A stretch of 38,321 bases of DNA from positions 1 to 38,321 of the forward strand of contig JAJRDA010000001.1 in NCBI GenBank assembly GCA_028678665.1. Direction: 5' to 3'. The notes beneath the pieces are model-generated. The model worked only from the letters and a program-made list of their open reading frames with translations. It was not told the DNA's origin and made no database searches. The DNA comes from Methanomicrobiales archaeon. GTDB lineage: Archaea > Halobacteriota > Methanomicrobia > Methanomicrobiales > JACTUA01. Below, one piece after another: positions 26,364-34,990 of the stretch. Position numbers and translations under genes: made by a program. Within the stretch, counting starts at the first letter, position 1; every line of letters starts with the position of its first letter.

Positions 26364-27541
26364 CCTTTGCCCCCCTCCAGCCGGACCAGCCGGTAGGTGC
26401 GGGATCCCATGCCCAGGTGCTCGGCATAGCGGAGCTGCTGCTCCCCGTCGGTATGGGGCCAGATCCCCCGGAACTTGTCCCCGCCCCTGTCATGGCCATG
26501 GCGGAGGAGGGTCCGGGGGAGACCGATCCCGCTGTTCACGAGATCCAGGCTCGCGGCATCGATGGCCACCGGGTCGGTGGAGGCGAGGATGCCGATGTCG
26601 GGGACGATGGGGGCATCGCTCCAGGGAACGCAGTCGCAGTCCGGCGTGACGGAGAGGAGGAGGTTGTAGAACCCGATCCTCCCCTTCTTGCCCTGGAATG
26701 CCCCCAGGGCATACTCCATCATCCGCTCGATGAAGGGCGGCAGGTCCACCTCCCAGTCAAACTCGAGGGTTCCATCCGGGCAGACGGTCATGCATTCCCC
26801 GCACCCGATGCACCGGTCCCGGTCCACCGCCATCGTCCCAGCGGTGAGCGAGAGGGCTCCCGACGGGCAGACCGCGATACAGGTGCCGCACCCCTGGCAC
26901 TCCGCCTCCGCCGCCATGGCCTTTGCCGCGTGCATCTCCCGCTTCCCGGCGGCCGGTGCACACCCCATGGCCAGGTTCTTGAGGGCCCCGCCGAAGCCGG
27001 TGAGATTATGGCCCTTGTAGTGGGAGATGACGATCATGCTGTCGGCCGCGGCGATGTCACCGGCCACGAGGACCCGGGAGAAGTGCCTTCCCTGCACCGG
27101 CACCTCCACGACATGGGTGGAGCGCAGGCCGTCGGCGATGATCACCGGTGCCCCTGCCACCGAGTAGTCAAAGCCGTGGAGAACGGCAGTGGTGAGGTGG
27201 TCCACCGCGTTGCTCCGGCTCCCCGAGTACAGGGTGGCGGTATCGGTGAGGAAGGGACGGCCTCCTGCCTCACGGATCCGGTCCACGACAGCCCGCACCA
27301 GTACCGGGCTCACGAACGTGTCCATCCCCCGCTCCCCGAAATGCAGCTTCACCGCGGTCAGGTCCCGTTCCCGGATGAGCTGCGGGAACCCGGCCTCGGA
27401 GAAGAGCCGGCGCAACCGGGTCACCTTGTTCTCTGCCTCGCTCCGTGCCCTGAGATCCGAGAAGAATACCTCTGCCACCACGGGAACCCCACCTGTCTCT
27501 TCCGCAGCCGGAACACTCTCTCCGGTATGGGATATAATCAT
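26360..27541 (-). CDS. DUF362-domain protein with inserted 2x[4Fe-4S] ferredoxin-type domain
   Basis: VFFSDLRA...VKLHFGE...FLTDTATLYSGSRSNAVDHL...VIIADG is the DUF362 core. The two ferredoxin motifs are CQGCGTCIAVCP and CIGCGECMTVCP. The start is taken at ATG 27541, though GTG codons about 60 nt downstream are also possible. The upstream 117 codons of the listed ORF run through the ORB and AT-rich intergenic DNA. Confidence 0.8.
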   Translation of the reverse strand: MIISHTGESVPAAEETGGVPVVAEVFFSDLRARSEAENKVTRLRRLFSEAGFPQLIRERDLTAVKLHFGERGMDTFVSPVLVRAVVDRIREAGGRPFLTDTATLYSGSRSNAVDHLTTAVLHGFDYSVAGAPVIIADGLRSTHVVEVPVQGRHFSRVLVAGDIAAADSMIVISHYKGHNLTGFGGALKNLAMGCAPAAGKREMHAAKAMAAEAECQGCGTCIAVCPSGALSLTAGTMAVDRDRCIGCGECMTVCPDGTLEFDWEVDLPPFIERMMEYALGAFQGKKGRIGFYNLLLSVTPDCDCVPWSDAPIVPDIGILASTDPVAIDAASLDLVNSGIGLPRTLLRHGHDRGGDKFRGIWPHTDGEQQLRYAEHLGMGSRTYRLVRLEGGKG

Positions 27542-27567
27542 CTCTCCCGGAGAGTTTCTGCACGGTC

Positions 27568-27584
27568 TTCCAGAGGAACCAGGG
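27568..27584 (+). promoter_or_regulatory. Degenerate ORB-like box
   Basis: TTCCAGAGGAACCAGGG compares with the cdc6-proximal TTCCAGTGGAAGCCAGGGGGT. Confidence 0.35.
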
Positions 27585-27715
27585 CCGCCTGGGGCCCGGT
27601 GCCCTGGAATCTCTGACCGGAATGGAGGGATGGGAAGGATACGCCCGCCGATGTCACCGCTTCGTCCGGGGATTCCTGCGTGCCCCGTGCAGGGAACCGG
27701 GAGCATTGCATGCCC

Positions 27716-27736
27716 CTCCAGTGGAAACAAAGGGGT
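27716..27736 (+). promoter_or_regulatory. Origin recognition box (ORB), full length with G-string
   Basis: CTCCAGTGGAAACAAAGGGGT has the dyad TCCAGTGGA and a GGGGT string, matching the archaeal Orc1/Cdc6 ORB consensus. Confidence 0.8.
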
Positions 27737-27998
27737 GGAAGCGGCTTTTTCCCAGATCAGTATATAAATATATCGGTAATCCGATGCCGCCTGAACCGGG
27801 GAATTTTGCGTTTTTTCCAGGGAATCTCCCCGCTTATCAGTTCCTGCCCGCATCCTCCTGCGGAGCGGGCCGCCCCCGCCATCCTTCACCACCCGGGCCC
27901 GCAGGGAAATTGCCCCCCCCGCATCCCACCCCGGTCCCGAGGGCAGAGAAATATTGTACCTGCGTGCCCTGTACGCGAAACCCGCGAGCGTCCATGCC

Positions 27999-28019
27999 CT
28001 CCAGTGGAAATAAAGGGGT
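27999..28019 (+). promoter_or_regulatory. Origin recognition box (ORB), full length with G-string
   Basis: CTCCAGTGGAAATAAAGGGGT is 20/21 identical to 27716-27736 and in the same orientation. Confidence 0.8.
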
Positions 28020-28057
28020 TTTCGGGGTTTTTTCTCTGCCCGACATATAAACCTTCC

Positions 28058-28075
28058 GTTTAATAAAAAATGATG
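28058..28075 (-). terminator. Possible oligo-T terminator of the cdc6-lrp-aminotransferase operon
   Basis: The minus strand reads ATCATCATTTTTTATTAAACGG about 40 nt after the aminotransferase stop. Confidence 0.4.
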
Positions 28076-28108
28076 ATTATTGGTGGAAAAGTGGTTTTCT
28101 GCGCCAGT

Positions 28109-29275
28109 TCATGCCTGCTTCAGGCCGGAGAGGAATTCGCCGATCCGCTGCAGCGCCCGGCCCAGGTCCTCCCGGGAGACCGCGTAGGCGCACCGGAGGT
28201 GACCGGTGCCGGAGGCCCCGAAGACCGAGCCCGGGACCACCGCCACCCGCTGCTCCGTGAGGAGGCCCTCGGCAAACTCCTGGTCCGAGAGGCCGGTGGA
28301 GGCCACCGACGGGAATGCATAGAAGGCCCCCCGGGGCACGTGGCAGGTGAGGCCCAGCCGGTTCAGGCCTTCCACAAAGTAGTTCCGGCGGACGCGGTAC
28401 TCCCGCACCATCCGGTTCTTGTCCTCCTCCGCGTTCTTCAGGGCTTCCACTGCAGCCAGCTGGCCCATGGTGGGGGCACAGAGCATCACGTACTGGTGGA
28501 TCTTCAGGGCCAGGTCACAGAGGGGCTGTGGAGCGCAGAGATAGCCTACCCGCCAGCCGGTCATGGAGTAGGCCTTGGAGAACCCGTTCAGGGTGATGGT
28601 CCGCTCACGCAGGCCATCCACGGAGGCCACCGCCACGTGGCGGCTCTCATAGGTCAGCTCCGCGTAGACCTCGTCGCTGATCACCAGCAGGTCGTGGTCC
28701 TGCACCACGTCTGCCACCGCCCGCCACTCCTCCCGTTCCATCACGGCACCCGTGGGATTGTTGGGGAAGTTGGCGACCAGGACCCGGGTCCTGGGGGTCA
28801 CCCTCTCCATCATCACATCGGCCGTGAGCCGGAATTCCTCCTTCTCAGGGCACGGCACAGGCACCGGGACCCCGCCGGCCAGGGTGACGCAGGGGGCGTA
28901 GGAGACGTAGCAGGGTTCTGCCACCAGTACCTCGTCCCCCGGGTCCACGACGGCCCGGAGGGCGATATCCTGCGCTTCGGAGACGCCGGTAGTGATCAGG
29001 ATCTCCGTCTCCGGGTCATAGGGAGTGCCATAGCGCCGCTCCAGGTCCCGGCTCACCGCCTGGCAGAGCGCCGGGAGGCCCCGGTTGGAGGTGTAGGAGG
29101 TGTGACCCTGCTCGATGGCATAGATCCCGGCCATCGAGACATTCCAGGGCGTGTTGAAGTCGGGCTCCCCCACCCCCAGGGAGATCACGTCCTCCATCTC
29201 CTGGAGGAGGTCAAAGAATTTCCGGATCCCTGACGGCGGAATCTCCTGTGCACGCCGTGAGCCGAATTGCCGCAT
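28109..29275 (-). CDS. Class I/II PLP-dependent aminotransferase (aspartate/aromatic aminotransferase-like)
   Basis: PPSGIRKFFDL, ISLGVGEPDF, YTSNRG, VISDEVYAEL, and the PLP-lysine region LNGFSKAYSMTGWRVGY are present. ATG 29275 is preceded by the SD-like GGGTGGA. Confidence 0.85.
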   Translation of the reverse strand: MRQFGSRRAQEIPPSGIRKFFDLLQEMEDVISLGVGEPDFNTPWNVSMAGIYAIEQGHTSYTSNRGLPALCQAVSRDLERRYGTPYDPETEILITTGVSEAQDIALRAVVDPGDEVLVAEPCYVSYAPCVTLAGGVPVPVPCPEKEEFRLTADVMMERVTPRTRVLVANFPNNPTGAVMEREEWRAVADVVQDHDLLVISDEVYAELTYESRHVAVASVDGLRERTITLNGFSKAYSMTGWRVGYLCAPQPLCDLALKIHQYVMLCAPTMGQLAAVEALKNAEEDKNRMVREYRVRRNYFVEGLNRLGLTCHVPRGAFYAFPSVASTGLSDQEFAEGLLTEQRVAVVPGSVFGASGTGHLRCAYAVSREDLGRALQRIGEFLSGLKQA

Positions 29276-29288
29276 CGCGTTTCCACCC

Positions 29289-29780
29289 CTAGAAGGAGAA
29301 GGGCAGGCGCTCCGCACCCTCTCGCTCGACAAAGAGGGTGCCGTTCTCCTTGTAGATCTTCATGATCAGGTGGGTGGCCGTCTCCCGGATGTGGTCCATG
29401 GGAGCGATCTGCTCGGAGACGAACCGGGCCACCTCCTGCATGGTCCTCCCGGCCACCAGGAGCTGGAGATCGTACATGCCGGTGACGAGGCGGAGGGCCC
29501 TGACCTGGTGGAAACGGGCGATCCGCTCGGCGATCCGCTCGTAGCCGAAGTCCCGCTCCGGGGTCACCTTCAGGTCGATGATGGCGAGCACCTCCCCGTT
29601 CCCTGCCCGCTCCCAGTCCACCACCGTGGAGTAGCCCCGGATGATCCGCGCGTCCTCCATCCCCGCTATCCGTGCCCTCACATCGTCCTCGGAGAGCTCC
29701 GTCATCGTGGCCAGATCAGCGGTCGGGATCCTGCTGTTCTCCTCCAGGAGCTGCAGGATCTGGAGGTCCTTCTCGTCCAT
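29289..29780 (-). CDS. Lrp/AsnC-family transcriptional regulator
   Basis: MDEKDLQILQLLEENSRIPTADLATMTELSEDDVRARI is the HTH_AsnC region, followed by a RAM/ACT-like C-terminal domain. Confidence 0.85.
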   Translation of the reverse strand: MDEKDLQILQLLEENSRIPTADLATMTELSEDDVRARIAGMEDARIIRGYSTVVDWERAGNGEVLAIIDLKVTPERDFGYERIAERIARFHQVRALRLVTGMYDLQLLVAGRTMQEVARFVSEQIAPMDHIRETATHLIMKIYKENGTLFVEREGAERLPFSF

Positions 29781-29784
29781 GGGA

Positions 29785-31065
29785 TCACCGGAAGATTGTC
29801 TTCAACCGGTTGGCATCCATCCGCTTCAAGGTTTCCTGCTCCAGGCGCTGGTCCTTCGCGAGCGTCTCCCAGATCCGCTGGGTTGTCGTGTCGAACCACA
29901 TCTCCTTGGTCCTGCCGTACCGCCCCTTGGAGACGACGCGGGTGTTGATGACCCCCAGCATGTTCAGCTCGGAGACGAGGTCCGTGATCCGCCGGTTGGT
30001 GAGGATGTCCAGGGAGAGGTCCTTCGCCACCTCCCGGTACACGTTCAGCACCTCGCCGCTCGTGAAGAGCTTCTTGCCGTTCTGGTCCAGGACCAGCATG
30101 GAATAGAGTACCACCTTGGACTGGGTGGGCAGGGTGGAGACGCACTCGATCATGCTGTCCGTATCGATCTTCTCCTGTGCCTGCCGGACATGCTTCTCGG
30201 TTACCCGCTCGGTGTTCTCCCGCTCGGCCAGTTCGCCGGAGACCCGCAGGAGGTCCAGCGCCCGCCGTGCGTCCCCGTGCTCGGTGGCTGCGAGGGCAGC
30301 GCAGACGGGGATGACGTTCTCCTCCAGCACCCCTTCGTTGAAGGCTGCCTGGGCCCGCTGGGTCAGGATATCGGTCAGCTGGTGGGCGTTGTAGGGGGGA
30401 AAGACGATCTCCTCCTCCGAGAGGGACGAGAGGACGCGGGGGTCCAGGAAGTCGGTGAACCGGAGGTCATTGGAGATCCCGATGATGGCCACCTTGGCAA
30501 TTCGGAGGTCCGAGTTGATCCGGGTCAGGTTGTACAGGGTCTCGTCCCCGCTCTTCTTCACCAGCTTGTCGATCTCGTCCAGGACGATCACCATGACGCC
30601 GCCGATGGTGTCCAGATGGTTCTTCAGCTCCATGTACACCTGGTCCGTGGGCCAGCCGGTGAAGGGGATGTTGGTGCGCTGGCTGTCGCTGGGCCGCTCG
30701 TCATGCCCCTCCAGGGTCTTTGCGATCTGGGCGAGCACCCGGTACTGGGTGTCGATCACCTCGCAGTTCAGGTGGATGACGTGGCAGGGGATGGACGTCT
30801 CCCGGCTGGCATTCTCCAGCTCCGCCCCCACGTACCGGACGCAGGCGGTCTTCCCTGTACCGGTCTTCCCGTAGATCAGGATATTAGATGGGGTCTCGCC
30901 CTTCAGGGATGCGGCAAGGATGGAGGCTACCCCCTCTATCTCCGGCTCGCGGTGGGGGAGCACCTGGGGGCGGTAGGAGTGGCGGAGCACCTCGCGGTTC
31001 CTGAAGATATTTTTATTGCCCAGGTACTTCTTGAAGAGGCCCATGGACGTGGTGTCTTCTTCCAT
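29785..31065 (-). CDS. cdc6: Orc1/Cdc6 replication initiator
   Basis: Walker A is ILIYGKTGTGKTA and Walker B is VIVLDEID. Sensor regions and a C-terminal winged helix are present. YRPQVLPHREPEI is the typical N-terminal block. The start is taken at ATG 31065 (31044 is also possible). The listed ATG at 31137 sits inside the TATA box. Confidence 0.9.
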   Translation of the reverse strand: MEEDTTSMGLFKKYLGNKNIFRNREVLRHSYRPQVLPHREPEIEGVASILAASLKGETPSNILIYGKTGTGKTACVRYVGAELENASRETSIPCHVIHLNCEVIDTQYRVLAQIAKTLEGHDERPSDSQRTNIPFTGWPTDQVYMELKNHLDTIGGVMVIVLDEIDKLVKKSGDETLYNLTRINSDLRIAKVAIIGISNDLRFTDFLDPRVLSSLSEEEIVFPPYNAHQLTDILTQRAQAAFNEGVLEENVIPVCAALAATEHGDARRALDLLRVSGELAERENTERVTEKHVRQAQEKIDTDSMIECVSTLPTQSKVVLYSMLVLDQNGKKLFTSGEVLNVYREVAKDLSLDILTNRRITDLVSELNMLGVINTRVVSKGRYGRTKEMWFDTTTQRIWETLAKDQRLEQETLKRMDANRLKTIFR

Positions 31066-31136
31066 CGAGTGCACTCCGAAGGATTGGTGCCGGTCATATC
31101 GGACCGTCCGATGATAAACACATCGATCTGAGCCCA

Positions 31137-31144
31137 TTTATAAC
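31137..31144 (-). promoter_or_regulatory. Probable TATA box of cdc6, abutting an ORB
   Basis: The minus strand reads ...GCCAGGGGGTTATAAATGGG. TTATAAAT lies about 70 nt upstream of ATG 31065. Confidence 0.5.
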
Positions 31145-31164
31145 CCCCTGGCTTCCACTGGAAT
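31143..31164 (-). promoter_or_regulatory. Origin recognition box (ORB) with G-string, inverted relative to the 27.7/28.0 kb boxes
   Basis: The reverse complement reads ATTCCAGTGGAAGCCAGGGGGT. Confidence 0.75.
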
Positions 31165-31364
31165 CTCTGGGATATTGCGTTATTAATGCGAATATTCCAA
31201 TATATTTGCCCCTTTCCACGGTCGGTTTCCACCGGGTGTGTCCCTTCGGGAATGCACCCTGCAGGGGATTTATCCGGGATGCGGAATCTTCCCTCCGGAC
31301 CGAGGATAAGAATTTCAGCCCCGGAAGCCTGCGCAGGGATCCCAGACCCCACCCACCCCATGGT

Positions 31365-31376
31365 TTCCAGTGGAAC
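31365..31376 (+). promoter_or_regulatory. Mini-ORB
   Basis: TTCCAGTGGAAC has the same dyad as the full ORBs but no G-string. Confidence 0.55.
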
Positions 31377-31615
31377 CGGAAAACTATTTCCTTGGTGGAA
31401 ATTCCCTCAGTGAAAACAGCCGGTGGTATTTCTCCCTTTCAAACTATAAAAATGATATGAAACAATGCGGGAAGAAAATCCACATGCAGCAGGAATCGGA
31501 GGGACACCTCCCCGGAGACCTGCAATGGAAGCCATGGGGTCCCCCATGCCAGTCCCGATTACAGGCCGGGCACCACCTTTAAACAGTCATTGGGAGAACA
31601 TACTTCCTGATCTGC

Positions 31616-32113
31616 ATGCACCCCCCCCATATCCGGGACATGGTGGTCACCGCAGCGGTAATCACGGTCTCTACCACGAGGACCCCGGAGACCGATGAAA
31701 GCGGGAAGGCCATCCAGGACCTCCTGGCAGGGGCCGGGATCGAAGTCACCTATTATGCCCTGGTGCCGGACCGCATTCCCCTGATCCGCACCGCACTCCT
31801 CACCGCGCTGGAGCATGCCGGCTGTGTCATCCTCACGGGGGGGACCGGTCTCACCCCGGACGACTGCACCATCGAGGCGGTCCGACCACTCCTGGAGAAG
31901 ACCATGGACGGGTTCGGGGAGCTCTTCCGCTGGAAATCCTTCCAGGAGATCGGGACCTCGGCCTACCTCTCACGGGCTCTCGCCGGGATCATGGATGGCA
32001 AGGCGGTCTTCTGCCTGCCGGGATCGCTTCCCGCGGTGACCCTGGCCACCCGGGACCTGATCCTGCCTGAGATCCGGCATATCCTGAGCCATAGCTCCCT
32101 CTCCCATCCCTGA
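31616..32113 (+). CDS. moaB: Molybdenum cofactor biosynthesis protein B (MoaB/MogA family)
   Basis: AAVITVSTTRTPETDESGKAI, VILTGGTGLTPDD, and GKAVFCLPGS are the family blocks. An alternative start is ATG 31640. Confidence 0.85.
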   Translation: MHPPHIRDMVVTAAVITVSTTRTPETDESGKAIQDLLAGAGIEVTYYALVPDRIPLIRTALLTALEHAGCVILTGGTGLTPDDCTIEAVRPLLEKTMDGFGELFRWKSFQEIGTSAYLSRALAGIMDGKAVFCLPGSLPAVTLATRDLILPEIRHILSHSSLSHP

Positions 32114-32818: not shown

Positions 32819-34990
32819 TCAGCCGCCCCCCGGTAACCGGGTCTGGGGATCGGCGGGCGGCGGGGGCGCCTCCCCGCCGGCCCCCCCGCGTCTCCTGCCG
32901 CGCGCGGCGATATCGGAGAGGACCTGCGCGGCCACCGCCCGGCCCAGGAGGGGTGTCAGCACATCCAGCCCGGCGTCTGCCACCGCCTGCGGCGAGGTGA
33001 TCCCCTGGTTGAAGAGGCGCCGTGCCCGAACCCTCCCGATGCCCCGCAGCGATACGAGAGGCAGGAGCTCCGGTTTCACGCCGTACTTCATCCGGGTCTC
33101 CATGGCAGCGACCGCTGCAGCATGGACGGGGACAAAGGCCCGGGAGATGCGGGCTGACGCGTGGAGGAGCCACCCCACTCCTTCCGTGAGGCCATAGATG
33201 TCGCCGGGGTTGATCCCGTACCGCTCGCAGATCGTGGCCTCCCCCACCTCGGCCGCCCAGTCCTGCAGGACGAGGGCCGTCTTCAGGCTCCGGTAGAACC
33301 CCATGAAGGCCTCCTCGTCATCCAGCGGGACGTCCACCCAGAGATCCTCCCCGTGCTCCCCCACGAACCGGTCCAGGAGCGGGATGTCCCCCTGCCGGAC
33401 GTAGAGGGTGAGCATGTCCGGCGTGCTGCAGACCAGCTGGAGGAGGCCGGTATCTGAGTACTCGGTGACGCAGGAGAGTGCCTGCAGGATCATGTCGGCG
33501 CTCCGGGGGTCCAGGTAGAGGCGGGAGACAAGGGACCCGTACTCAGTGGCCGACAGGTGGCCGGGGAGGATCGTGAGCATCTCCACTTCCGCGAGCCACG
33601 TGAGAATCCGGTCCACGTGCCGCTCCAGCGGGCCCCGCGACTTCTTCTGGTAGGCAAGCAGGGTGCGGTCCATGAACCGGAGGATCTCCTCCCGGCTGGA
33701 GGCAAAGCCGGTGGCCACCAGCGAGAGGACGTGGGTGCAGAGGGCGGCACGGCTGGTGCAGCGGGATGTCACTTCCTCCGGCGGGGAGTTCACGTAGTGC
33801 TCGGCCAGGGACTGGAGGGCCAGGGCGTCCTTTGCGATCAGCACCGCCTCGCCGTAGGGGTCCAGGCCGGGCCGCCCTGCCCTCCCTGCCATCTGGTGGT
33901 ACTCCCGGACCGGGATCGGCACCATCCCCTCGCCGGTCTGGTAACGGAGGTAGTCCCGGATGATCACCCGGCGGGCCGGGAGGTTCAGACCGGCGGCAAG
34001 GGTGGGGGTGGAGGCGATGCACCGGATCTTCCCGGACCGGAATCCCCGTTCGACGATGGCCCGCTGCTCCCTGCGGAGGCCGGCGTGGTGGAAGGCCGCA
34101 CCCTGCGCGACGCATGCAGCCAGCGTCCGGTCCATCTCGGTCTCGGCCAGGCTTCCCAGCTCCCGGGACGCCGTGTCCAGCTCCGGCTCATGGCACGCGA
34201 GGGCACCGGCGGCACGCTTCGCGAATGCCTCCGCGTTCCTCCGGGATGACACAAAGACGAGGCACTGCCCGCCCTCGGCCACCGTGTCCAGGCAGAGGTT
34301 CAGGTCATCGAACCGGGAGACACCTTCCACCCGGCGCGGCCCCTCCGGGAAATGGATGGCGCCCCGGTGGAAGACCCCTTCCCGGAGCACCACCGGCCGC
34401 CAGGTGCCGGTCACCACCTCGGCGTCCAGCCACCCGGCCAGCTCCTTCGGGTTGCCGATGGTGGCCGAGAGGGCCAGCACCTGCATGGCAGGGTTCCGGG
34501 CCCGGAGCTTTGTCACCACCATCTCCAGGGTGGGGCCCCGGCCCTCGTCGTCCAGCAGGTGCACCTCGTCCACGACGAGGAGCGTGATCTCCGAGAGCCA
34601 GGGGGTGCGGTTCCGGAGCAGCGAGTCCACCTTCTCGCTCGTTGCCACAATGATGTGGCAGCGCCCGAGCGCCTCTTCCCTCCGGTCGTAATCGCCGGTG
34701 GCGATGCCGGTGACAGGCCCCTTGCGGCGGAACTCCTCGAACTTCTCGCTGGCGAGGGCTTTTAACGGCACGATGTACAGGCACCGCCCCCCCCGGGCGA
34801 TGTGGTGGTGCATCGCCATCTCGGCGACGAGCGTCTTCCCGCTCGCAGTCGGGATGGCCACGAGCAGGTTCCTGCCGTCGAAGATCCCCTTCCGGACGCA
34901 CTCCTCCTGCGGGGGATACAGGGAAGTGATCCCGGACCGGATATAGTGCTCCTTGAGACCCTCAGGGATGGGCAGCGCGGCGATCTCCAT
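32819..34990 (-). CDS. hel308: Ski2-like DNA helicase Hel308
   Basis: LYPPQEE (Q motif), AIPTASGKT (motif I), DEVH (motif II), SAT (III), HHAGL, TPTLAAGLNLPARRVI and QMAGRAGRPG (VI) are present. The winged-helix/ratchet domains and the C-terminal HLH GIGRVRARRL follow. Confidence 0.9.
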   Translation of the reverse strand: MEIAALPIPEGLKEHYIRSGITSLYPPQEECVRKGIFDGRNLLVAIPTASGKTLVAEMAMHHHIARGGRCLYIVPLKALASEKFEEFRRKGPVTGIATGDYDRREEALGRCHIIVATSEKVDSLLRNRTPWLSEITLLVVDEVHLLDDEGRGPTLEMVVTKLRARNPAMQVLALSATIGNPKELAGWLDAEVVTGTWRPVVLREGVFHRGAIHFPEGPRRVEGVSRFDDLNLCLDTVAEGGQCLVFVSSRRNAEAFAKRAAGALACHEPELDTASRELGSLAETEMDRTLAACVAQGAAFHHAGLRREQRAIVERGFRSGKIRCIASTPTLAAGLNLPARRVIIRDYLRYQTGEGMVPIPVREYHQMAGRAGRPGLDPYGEAVLIAKDALALQSLAEHYVNSPPEEVTSRCTSRAALCTHVLSLVATGFASSREEILRFMDRTLLAYQKKSRGPLERHVDRILTWLAEVEMLTILPGHLSATEYGSLVSRLYLDPRSADMILQALSCVTEYSDTGLLQLVCSTPDMLTLYVRQGDIPLLDRFVGEHGEDLWVDVPLDDEEAFMGFYRSLKTALVLQDWAAEVGEATICERYGINPGDIYGLTEGVGWLLHASARISRAFVPVHAAAVAAMETRMKYGVKPELLPLVSLRGIGRVRARRLFNQGITSPQAVADAGLDVLTPLLGRAVAAQVLSDIAARGRRRGGAGGEAPPPPADPQTRLPGGG

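Follow-up and report, generated by a model that had tools for sequence, protein, structure and literature searches.

The window, a stretch of 38,321 nucleotides, is the whole of contig C1 of a Methanomicrobiales MAG (185 contigs, 1.735 Mb, 64% GC). The region described here separates the orc1/cdc6 initiator gene (cdc6; 29785-31065, minus strand) from a MoaB-like gene (moaB; 31616-32113, plus strand). On the cdc6 side follow, all on the minus strand, a gene for an Lrp/AsnC regulator (lrp; 29289-29780), a class I/II aminotransferase gene (28109-29275) and a DUF362/ferredoxin-domain gene (26360 to ~27541); on the other side, moaB is followed by a Hel308 gene on the minus strand (32819-34990). A TTTAAA sequence on the plus strand (31578-31583), located 33-38 nt before the moaB ATG at 31616 and kept in an alignment of the window with the related locus L001, is the probable moaB promoter box.

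The cdc6 gene encodes a protein of 426 aa with the Pfam domains Cdc6_lid, Cdc6_C and AAA, scoring 605.6 bits against the NCBIfam equivalog for ORC1-type proteins (NF001625; cut-off 501). Among solved structures it is closest to Orc1-1 of Sulfolobus solfataricus (2QBY_A, E = 3e-104) and ORC1 of Aeropyrum pernix (2V1U, E = 7e-102), the proteins of the ORB-bound crystal structures, and the wing segment GRYGRTKE is retained. As judged from these matches, the product is an Orc1-1-type initiator, in agreement with a preliminary description of this DNA that had placed a replication origin next to orc1/cdc6. The closest orthologues, at 94-95% amino-acid identity, come from wetland Methanomicrobiales MAGs; Methanoculleus Cdc6 is ~75% identical to the protein of the window.

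The start codon of cdc6 determines the extent of the non-coding gap. A longer ORF begins at an ATG at 31137; this start was rejected, as its ATG is not conserved and alignments with the relatives begin at the ATG at 31065. Relatives of 82% identity lack the upstream ATG, and 80 Cdc6 orthologues can be aligned with the 426-aa form from its residue 1-7 onward. The three closest species do not differ over the 36-41 nt that come directly after the promoter-proximal ORB (ORB-A, below), with no synonymous-type drift, and the differences found further on would be mostly non-synonymous if read as part of the long ORF. The sequences thus compared indicate that cdc6 most likely starts at 31065. With this start the non-coding gap covers 550 bp (31066-31615) and not the 478 bp given in the preliminary description. 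Small ORFs of 70-141 aa within the gap were rejected as genes: alignments with the related loci L001 and L002 contain 1-nt indels and show conservation at the nucleotide and not at the codon level. An RNA gene is likewise unsupported, as a permissive Rfam scan of 27400-31800 gave one chance-level snoRNA match, inside the aminotransferase gene.

The gap contains three full ORBs (A, B and C), mini-ORBs and two AT-rich tracts. Going outward from cdc6, a TATA-like box is followed by ORB-A, AT tract 1, two mini-ORBs, a conserved stretch bearing two palindromes and ORB-B with a G-rich extension; beyond ORB-B come plus-strand mini-ORB-like boxes (31386-31426), AT tract 2, ORB-C and the TTTAAA box of moaB. 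ORB-A (ATTCCAGTGGAAGCCAGGGGGT, 31143-31164, minus strand) lies proximal to the promoter, 78-97 nt upstream of the ATG at 31065, and had already been recognized as a full origin recognition box with dyad and G-string, exactly as found here. ORB-B (GTTCCACTGGAAACCATGGGGT, 31355-31376, minus strand) was identified by a repeat search. ORB-C (CCTGCAATGGAAGCCATGGGGT, 31519-31540, plus strand) is their inverted partner and has a degenerate dyad, a variant kept in identical form in L001. All three fit the pan-archaeal consensus CTTCCAGTGGAAACGAAAGGGGT quoted in PMC4153887, with a dyad TCCAGTGGAA plus the G-string GGGGT, and are one base shorter (22 versus 23 nt).

The two degenerate minus-strand boxes previously noted to the right of ORB-A were found as mini-ORB cores GTGGAAA at 31213-31219 and 31226-31232, 13 nt apart, in a stretch (CCCGGTGGAAAC) conserved in L001 and L002. 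Three further boxes had been listed as plus-strand boxes; their sequences are all present, each within one base of the position given. The first, TTCCAGTGGAAC at 31365-31376, belongs to ORB-B. Its proposed opposite orientation was not borne out: because its G-string (ACCCCATGG on the plus strand, 31355-31363) stands to its left, the box is minus-oriented like ORB-A. The second, CCTTGGTGGAAAT, occupies 31390-31402, starting at 31390 instead of 31389, and the third, CTCAGTGAAAACAGCCGGTGG, occupies 31406-31426. Together with ATTTCCTTGGTGGAAATTC, the latter makes up the plus-strand mini-ORB-like boxes, which are partly conserved in L001 and L002.

Two further features were noticed around ORB-B. 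Its conserved G-rich extension (GGGTGGGG, 31347-31354; GGGGTGGGTGGGGTC on the minus strand over 31343-31359) resembles the extended G-string of haloarchaeal ORBs. Between ORB-A and ORB-B lie two small palindromes, TCCCTTCGGGA and CCCTGCAGGG (31241-31266); TCCCTTCGGGA is kept in all three closest species and CCCTGCAGGG only partly in L002. These palindromes may be a site for another factor.

The specificity of these boxes was assessed against chance in the window, in the MAG and in two complete chromosomes. The 15-nt ORB half TGGAANCCANGGGGT has three exact matches on both strands of the 1.735-Mb MAG, and all are within the gap, corresponding to ORBs A, B and C. When a 20-nt ORB pattern was searched with at most one mismatch, seven matches were found in the MAG, five of them in positions 27000-32000 of contig C1, and none with the reversed pattern used as a control. 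The ORB word is thus not dispersed over dozens of loci, a distribution that would have spoken against the origin proposed earlier; five of the seven occurrences in the MAG are found within 5 kb of cdc6. GTGGAAA is present three times in the 550-bp gap where 0.05 occurrences are expected (P = 2e-5), and a scan of the window for the boxes gave 6 matches against 0.98 expected, a number reached in none of 100 shuffles. The complete genome of Methanoculleus palmolei has six of its eight ORB matches within 7 kb around cdc6, and in the chromosome OY969100 all four matches fall within 620 bp upstream of cdc6; the controls gave 0 in both.

The two AT-rich tracts announced in the preliminary description are both present. 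AT tract 1 (31166-31208) lies between the direct ORBs A and B; its 40-mer 31169-31208 is 70% AT and ranks as the 7th least stable of the window in a nearest-neighbour stability profile. AT tract 2 (31427-31475) is short (~49 bp) and nearly invariant in three species; in the same nearest-neighbour profile, only two 40-mers of the 38-kb window are less stable than its 40-mer 31427-31466, which has 78% AT in a genome of 64% GC. ORB-B on the minus strand and ORB-C on the plus strand are inverted around AT tract 2, with their dyads pointing inward and their G-strings outward. Because it is surrounded by this inverted pair, AT tract 2 is the best candidate for a DNA unwinding element, and the arrangement suggests that this tract, rather than AT tract 1 as first assumed, most likely serves as such. 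The idea of inverted ORBs flanking an AT-rich element therefore holds for the pair B and C; the inverted partner is ORB-C, which had gone unnoticed, and not the box at 31365. The least stable DNA of the window is found elsewhere, at 2025-2155 (40-mer 2067-2106, 88% AT), in a local dip of GC content at 2-3 kb.

This layout was compared across 81 loci, the window and 80 related loci, with positions taken relative to the cdc6 ATG. Between -400 and -60, 137 ORBs are plus-oriented and 2 are minus-oriented, whereas between -500 and -1700 the numbers are 12 and 79, respectively. In the relatives, ORB orientation thus switches between about -400 and -500, across the interval of the AT element. Spacing is conserved as well: ORBs A and B are separated by 212 nt in the window and 211 nt in L001, ORBs B and C by 164 nt and 166 nt, respectively. 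Methanoculleus-like loci (L010-L042) have a conserved variant ORB, TGCAGTGGAAATGAAGGGGT, on the far side of the genes next to cdc6, ~3.7-4.7 kb upstream of it; a scan of the window found no counterpart. In Methanoculleus loci (e.g. L013-L040), the promoter-proximal ORB has a perfect dyad, TCCACTGGAA, and the two ORBs beside the presumed unwinding element have a broken dyad (TCCAGTCGAA or TCCACACGAA), a difference that may reflect graded affinities.

A second ORB cluster is present on the other side of cdc6, 3.4 kb away and downstream of the cdc6-lrp-aminotransferase row. It consists of two direct full ORBs on the plus strand (27716-27736 and 27999-28019) in a 567-bp intergenic gap (27542-28108), each followed by an AT-rich tract containing ATATAAA; two of the window's least stable 40-mers (ranks 2 and 5) are found in this gap. 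Relatives have a matching cluster past the genes downstream of cdc6, at ~2.9-3.7 kb counted from the cdc6 start. This cluster would probably constitute an additional initiator-binding region, acting as a sink or as part of a larger nucleoprotein complex. The MAG also carries two orphan ORBs, at 8437-8457 of contig C4 (CTTCCAGTGGAAATAAAGGGGT) and at 4366-4385 of contig C97 (variant TCCATCGGAAATAAAGGGGT), both intergenic and away from any cdc6 gene or paralogue. Conversely, a Cdc6 paralogue of 25% identity is encoded on contig C19, and the pattern search of the MAG detected no ORBs near it. In M. palmolei, two ORBs are located in a ~238-bp tandemly duplicated module (1520129-1520386), ~5.5 kb from the gene for a second Cdc6 paralogue (23% identity; 1,525,677-1,526,792). 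This module at 1,520.1 kb may represent a second origin, or a site at which the initiator lands.

The preliminary description also predicted that an extremum of cumulative GC skew would fall at the locus. In the window, the gap has negative GC skew to its left and to its right, without a switch, and with only 7 kb on the right-hand side this observation has no power. As the contigs of the MAG cannot be ordered, nucleotide skew was sampled in two complete relatives, M. palmolei and OY969100, one 20-kb block being taken every 40 kb. For M. palmolei, the 700-720 kb block contains the locus, at about 715 kb, as well as the minimum of the detrended cumulative G-C curve and the maximum of MK; the maximum of A-T comes one sampled block later (720-740 kb). 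In a block-shuffle analysis the G-C walk is no larger than shuffled walks (P ~0.26), and the values for A-T and MK are ~0.02. In OY969100, the G-C minimum is in a broad trough at 1.72-1.86 Mb, ~150 kb from the ORBs at 1.711 Mb (shuffle ~0.04). The extrema are thus in or next to the block of the locus in M. palmolei, and OY969100 agrees only roughly with the prediction; skew in the two complete relatives weakly supports the origin reading.

Taken together, these features lead us to consider, with high confidence, that the gap is a genuine chromosomal replication origin of the oriC1 type in this uncultured Methanomicrobiales archaeon. The canonical archaeal oriC proposed at this locus is supported by the Orc1-1-type neighbour, the confinement of the ORBs and a layout kept across the Methanomicrobiales. 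The reading starts from the sequence of the boxes, their specificity and conservation and the type of initiator, and from these we infer binding, melting, helicase loading and repression. The Orc1-1-type initiator produced from the next-door gene would bind the three full ORBs and, cooperatively, the mini-ORBs, and duplex melting and MCM loading would then take place at the 49-bp AT-rich element (31427-31475) between ORB-B and ORB-C.

Two other explanations of the locus were weighed. It could be shaped like an origin and yet be dormant or dispensable, with replication starting elsewhere or by recombination. Such a situation has a precedent in Thermococcus kodakarensis, whose genome is described in PMC5663688 as replicating independently of Cdc6 and of the origin; it would also fit with the weak skew support, the second ORB pair near a Cdc6 paralogue in M. 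palmolei and the paralogue on contig C19 of the MAG. Against dormancy, ORB sequence, spacing and orientation as well as the AT element are conserved throughout the order, which argues for continuing selection, and the skew extrema of M. palmolei lie in or next to the block of the locus. We therefore regard a dormant origin as improbable. Alternatively, the ORB array might mainly provide transcriptional operators for the cdc6-lrp-aminotransferase row and for moaB, as could be suggested by the proximal ORB abutting a promoter-like box and by the orphan ORBs on C4 and C97. However, operators have no need of inverted ORBs around a conserved, easily melted AT element, and initiators of the type encoded beside the gap have been shown to work at oriC1 origins. 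As a main role this one seems more improbable still; operator and origin roles are in any case not exclusive.

The junction between ORB-A and the cdc6 promoter was analysed as well. ORB-A runs directly into the TATA-like box TTATAAAT (31136-31143, minus strand), the first T of which is the last base of the ORB. The box resembles those upstream of tRNA genes of the MAG. The segment 31066-31135 (minus strand) is the probable cdc6 5' leader and transcription-start region, with a predicted start at ~31110-31116, and GGAG is found 11-14 nt before the ATG. This segment includes the A/T-rich sequence TTTATCAT (31118-31111, minus strand), a candidate proximal promoter element or alternative TATA box. 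A plus-oriented ORB whose start lies 60-130 nt ahead of the cdc6 ATG is present at 79 of the 81 loci. At least five A/T among the 7 nt after GGGGT are found in 63 of these 79 proximal ORBs versus 43 of 297 other ORBs; at most of the 79 loci the sequence following GGGGT is TTATAAA, TTTATAA, TTTATAT or, in Methanoculleus, a weaker TTATCTG. Of 301 Methanomicrobiales genomes, 142 contain the composite word TGGAANNNANGGGGTT(N)AT, in most cases a single time, compared with ~6 genomes for the reversed control. Outside the order, it was found in 12 of 102 other genomes of the phylum, and one of the ten such sites inspected is upstream of a cdc6 orthologue, at a distance of ~255 nt. Because the sites outside the order are sporadic and, among the ten inspected, not tied to the cdc6 promoter, the ORB-TATA fusion looks specific to the order in this small sample. 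The fusion of an ORB with the cdc6 TATA box had been proposed before; the junction is confirmed as conserved in 79 of 81 loci, and its conservation supports a putative TATA role for the box. The proposal did not take into account that the ATG at 31137 lies within TTATAAAT: a box cannot serve an ATG inside it, and the TATA claim works only because the real cdc6 start is 72 nt further downstream.

The position of the junction suggests how cdc6 might be controlled. The G-string of an ORB is contacted by the AAA+ domain (PMC3936714), and the footprint of Sulfolobus Cdc6-1 on an ORB covers 36 bp (PMC1904270); an initiator bound to ORB-A should therefore cover the BRE slot and the 8-nt box. The G-string of ORB-A would occupy the archaeal BRE slot, directly against the TATA-like box, and an initiator on ORB-A would probably compete with TFB and TBP and thus damp cdc6 transcription. 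Self-repression of cdc6 via ORB-A is plausible on these grounds, and we are evenly divided as to whether it occurs. More tentatively, we propose for the Methanomicrobiales that the G-string of the proximal ORB replaces the BRE of cdc6, which would hard-wire origin occupancy to self-repression, and that the downstream ORB pair buffers free initiator. If true, the BRE-replacing ORB and the buffering pair would form an archaeal equivalent of dnaA autoregulation combined with titration by datA. The literature searched yielded nothing specific on an ORB-TATA fusion, on BRE-replacing feedback in this order or on Methanoculleus origins. Robinson et al. are said to have discussed, in 2004, ORBs near the cdc6-1 promoter in Sulfolobus.

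The assignment of the TATA box bears directly on this proposal. The origin may be genuine while the working TATA box is the second one, TTTATCAT (31118-31111); ORB-A, ~25-45 nt upstream, would then be neutral or serve as an activator site, and transcription leaving the origin might help to open it. In most lineages, a second conserved A/T-rich box is indeed found 25-32 nt downstream of the first, preceded by a conserved word similar to AAACGATC, and in Methanoculleus the first box is weak (TTATCTG). The tRNA promoters of the MAG contain degenerate boxes resembling both candidates (e.g. TTTATCGG and CTTATCAA) and are too degenerate to choose between the two. On the other hand, relatives resembling Methanoregula and Methanolinea have TTTATAA or TTTATAT, close to the consensus, straight after GGGGT. 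Moreover, the second box, which can be taken either as a TATA box or as a proximal element or start region belonging to the first, falls where the proximal promoter element and start site are expected if the first box is the TATA box, and the A-rich word does not adjoin the second box as a BRE would. A second-box promoter thus appears somewhat unlikely, and TTATAAAT is retained as the putative cdc6 TATA box.

The locus is of a well-known kind, as expected beside cdc6, and the ORB-TATA junction is its one detail of wider interest. It gives a fixed point for the replication origin in a lineage of uncultured wetland methanogens, and its boxes, presumed unwinding element and promoter are mapped precisely, in an arrangement valid throughout the Methanomicrobiales, an order for which the literature searched apparently includes no experimentally mapped origin. 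How archaea control initiation is poorly understood, and the order-wide junction is a simple case in which self-control by an initiator can be put to the test.

The gap shares with S. solfataricus oriC1 and A. pernix oriC1 an adjacent initiator of the same type, ORBs made of a dyad and a G-string, and inverted ORBs flanking an AT-rich element. Unlike these origins, the gap belongs to a GC-rich genome, so that its AT element is short; its ORB core has 22 nt as against the 23-nt pan-archaeal consensus, and its function is a predicted one. The oriC of Pyrococcus and other Thermococcales includes a second ORB cluster, situated in dp1, and in vivo Cdc6 is bound at the two clusters alike (Matsunaga et al. 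2007, PMC1904270). Here too, cdc6 lies between two ORB clusters and full ORBs are mixed with mini-ORBs, but the second cluster is intergenic, beyond lrp and the aminotransferase gene, and not inside dp1. In Haloarcula hispanica, G-strings are essential parts of the ORBs of oriC1 and oriC2/oriC2D (Wu et al. 2014, PMC3936714), and the ORB-rich oriC2D, downstream of cdc6, is a negative regulator, probably by titrating the initiator (PMC3936714). The window resembles this system in having ORBs with G-strings, a conserved G-rich extension at ORB-B and ORBs downstream of cdc6; it differs in that the downstream ORBs number two, compared with 11 in oriC2D, and are described from sequence.

The predicted ORBs of the Methanomassiliicoccales are also of a 22-nt form, one base under the consensus (Borrel et al. 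2014, PMC4153887), and are located upstream and downstream of orc1/cdc6.1, with a few orphan ORBs elsewhere (PMC4153887). The same ORB length, the presence of ORBs on both sides of cdc6 and the small number of orphans are found in our MAG, which belongs to a different order; no TATA fusion is described in that study. A parallel in logic comes from bacteria: DnaA boxes in the dnaA promoter underlie initiator autoregulation, as mentioned in the background to PMC3936714. The logic proposed for cdc6 is that of dnaA, with a site for the initiator in the promoter of its own gene, beside the origin. The protein and the promoter machinery are unrelated, and repression of cdc6 is predicted from the position of ORB-A against its TATA-like box.
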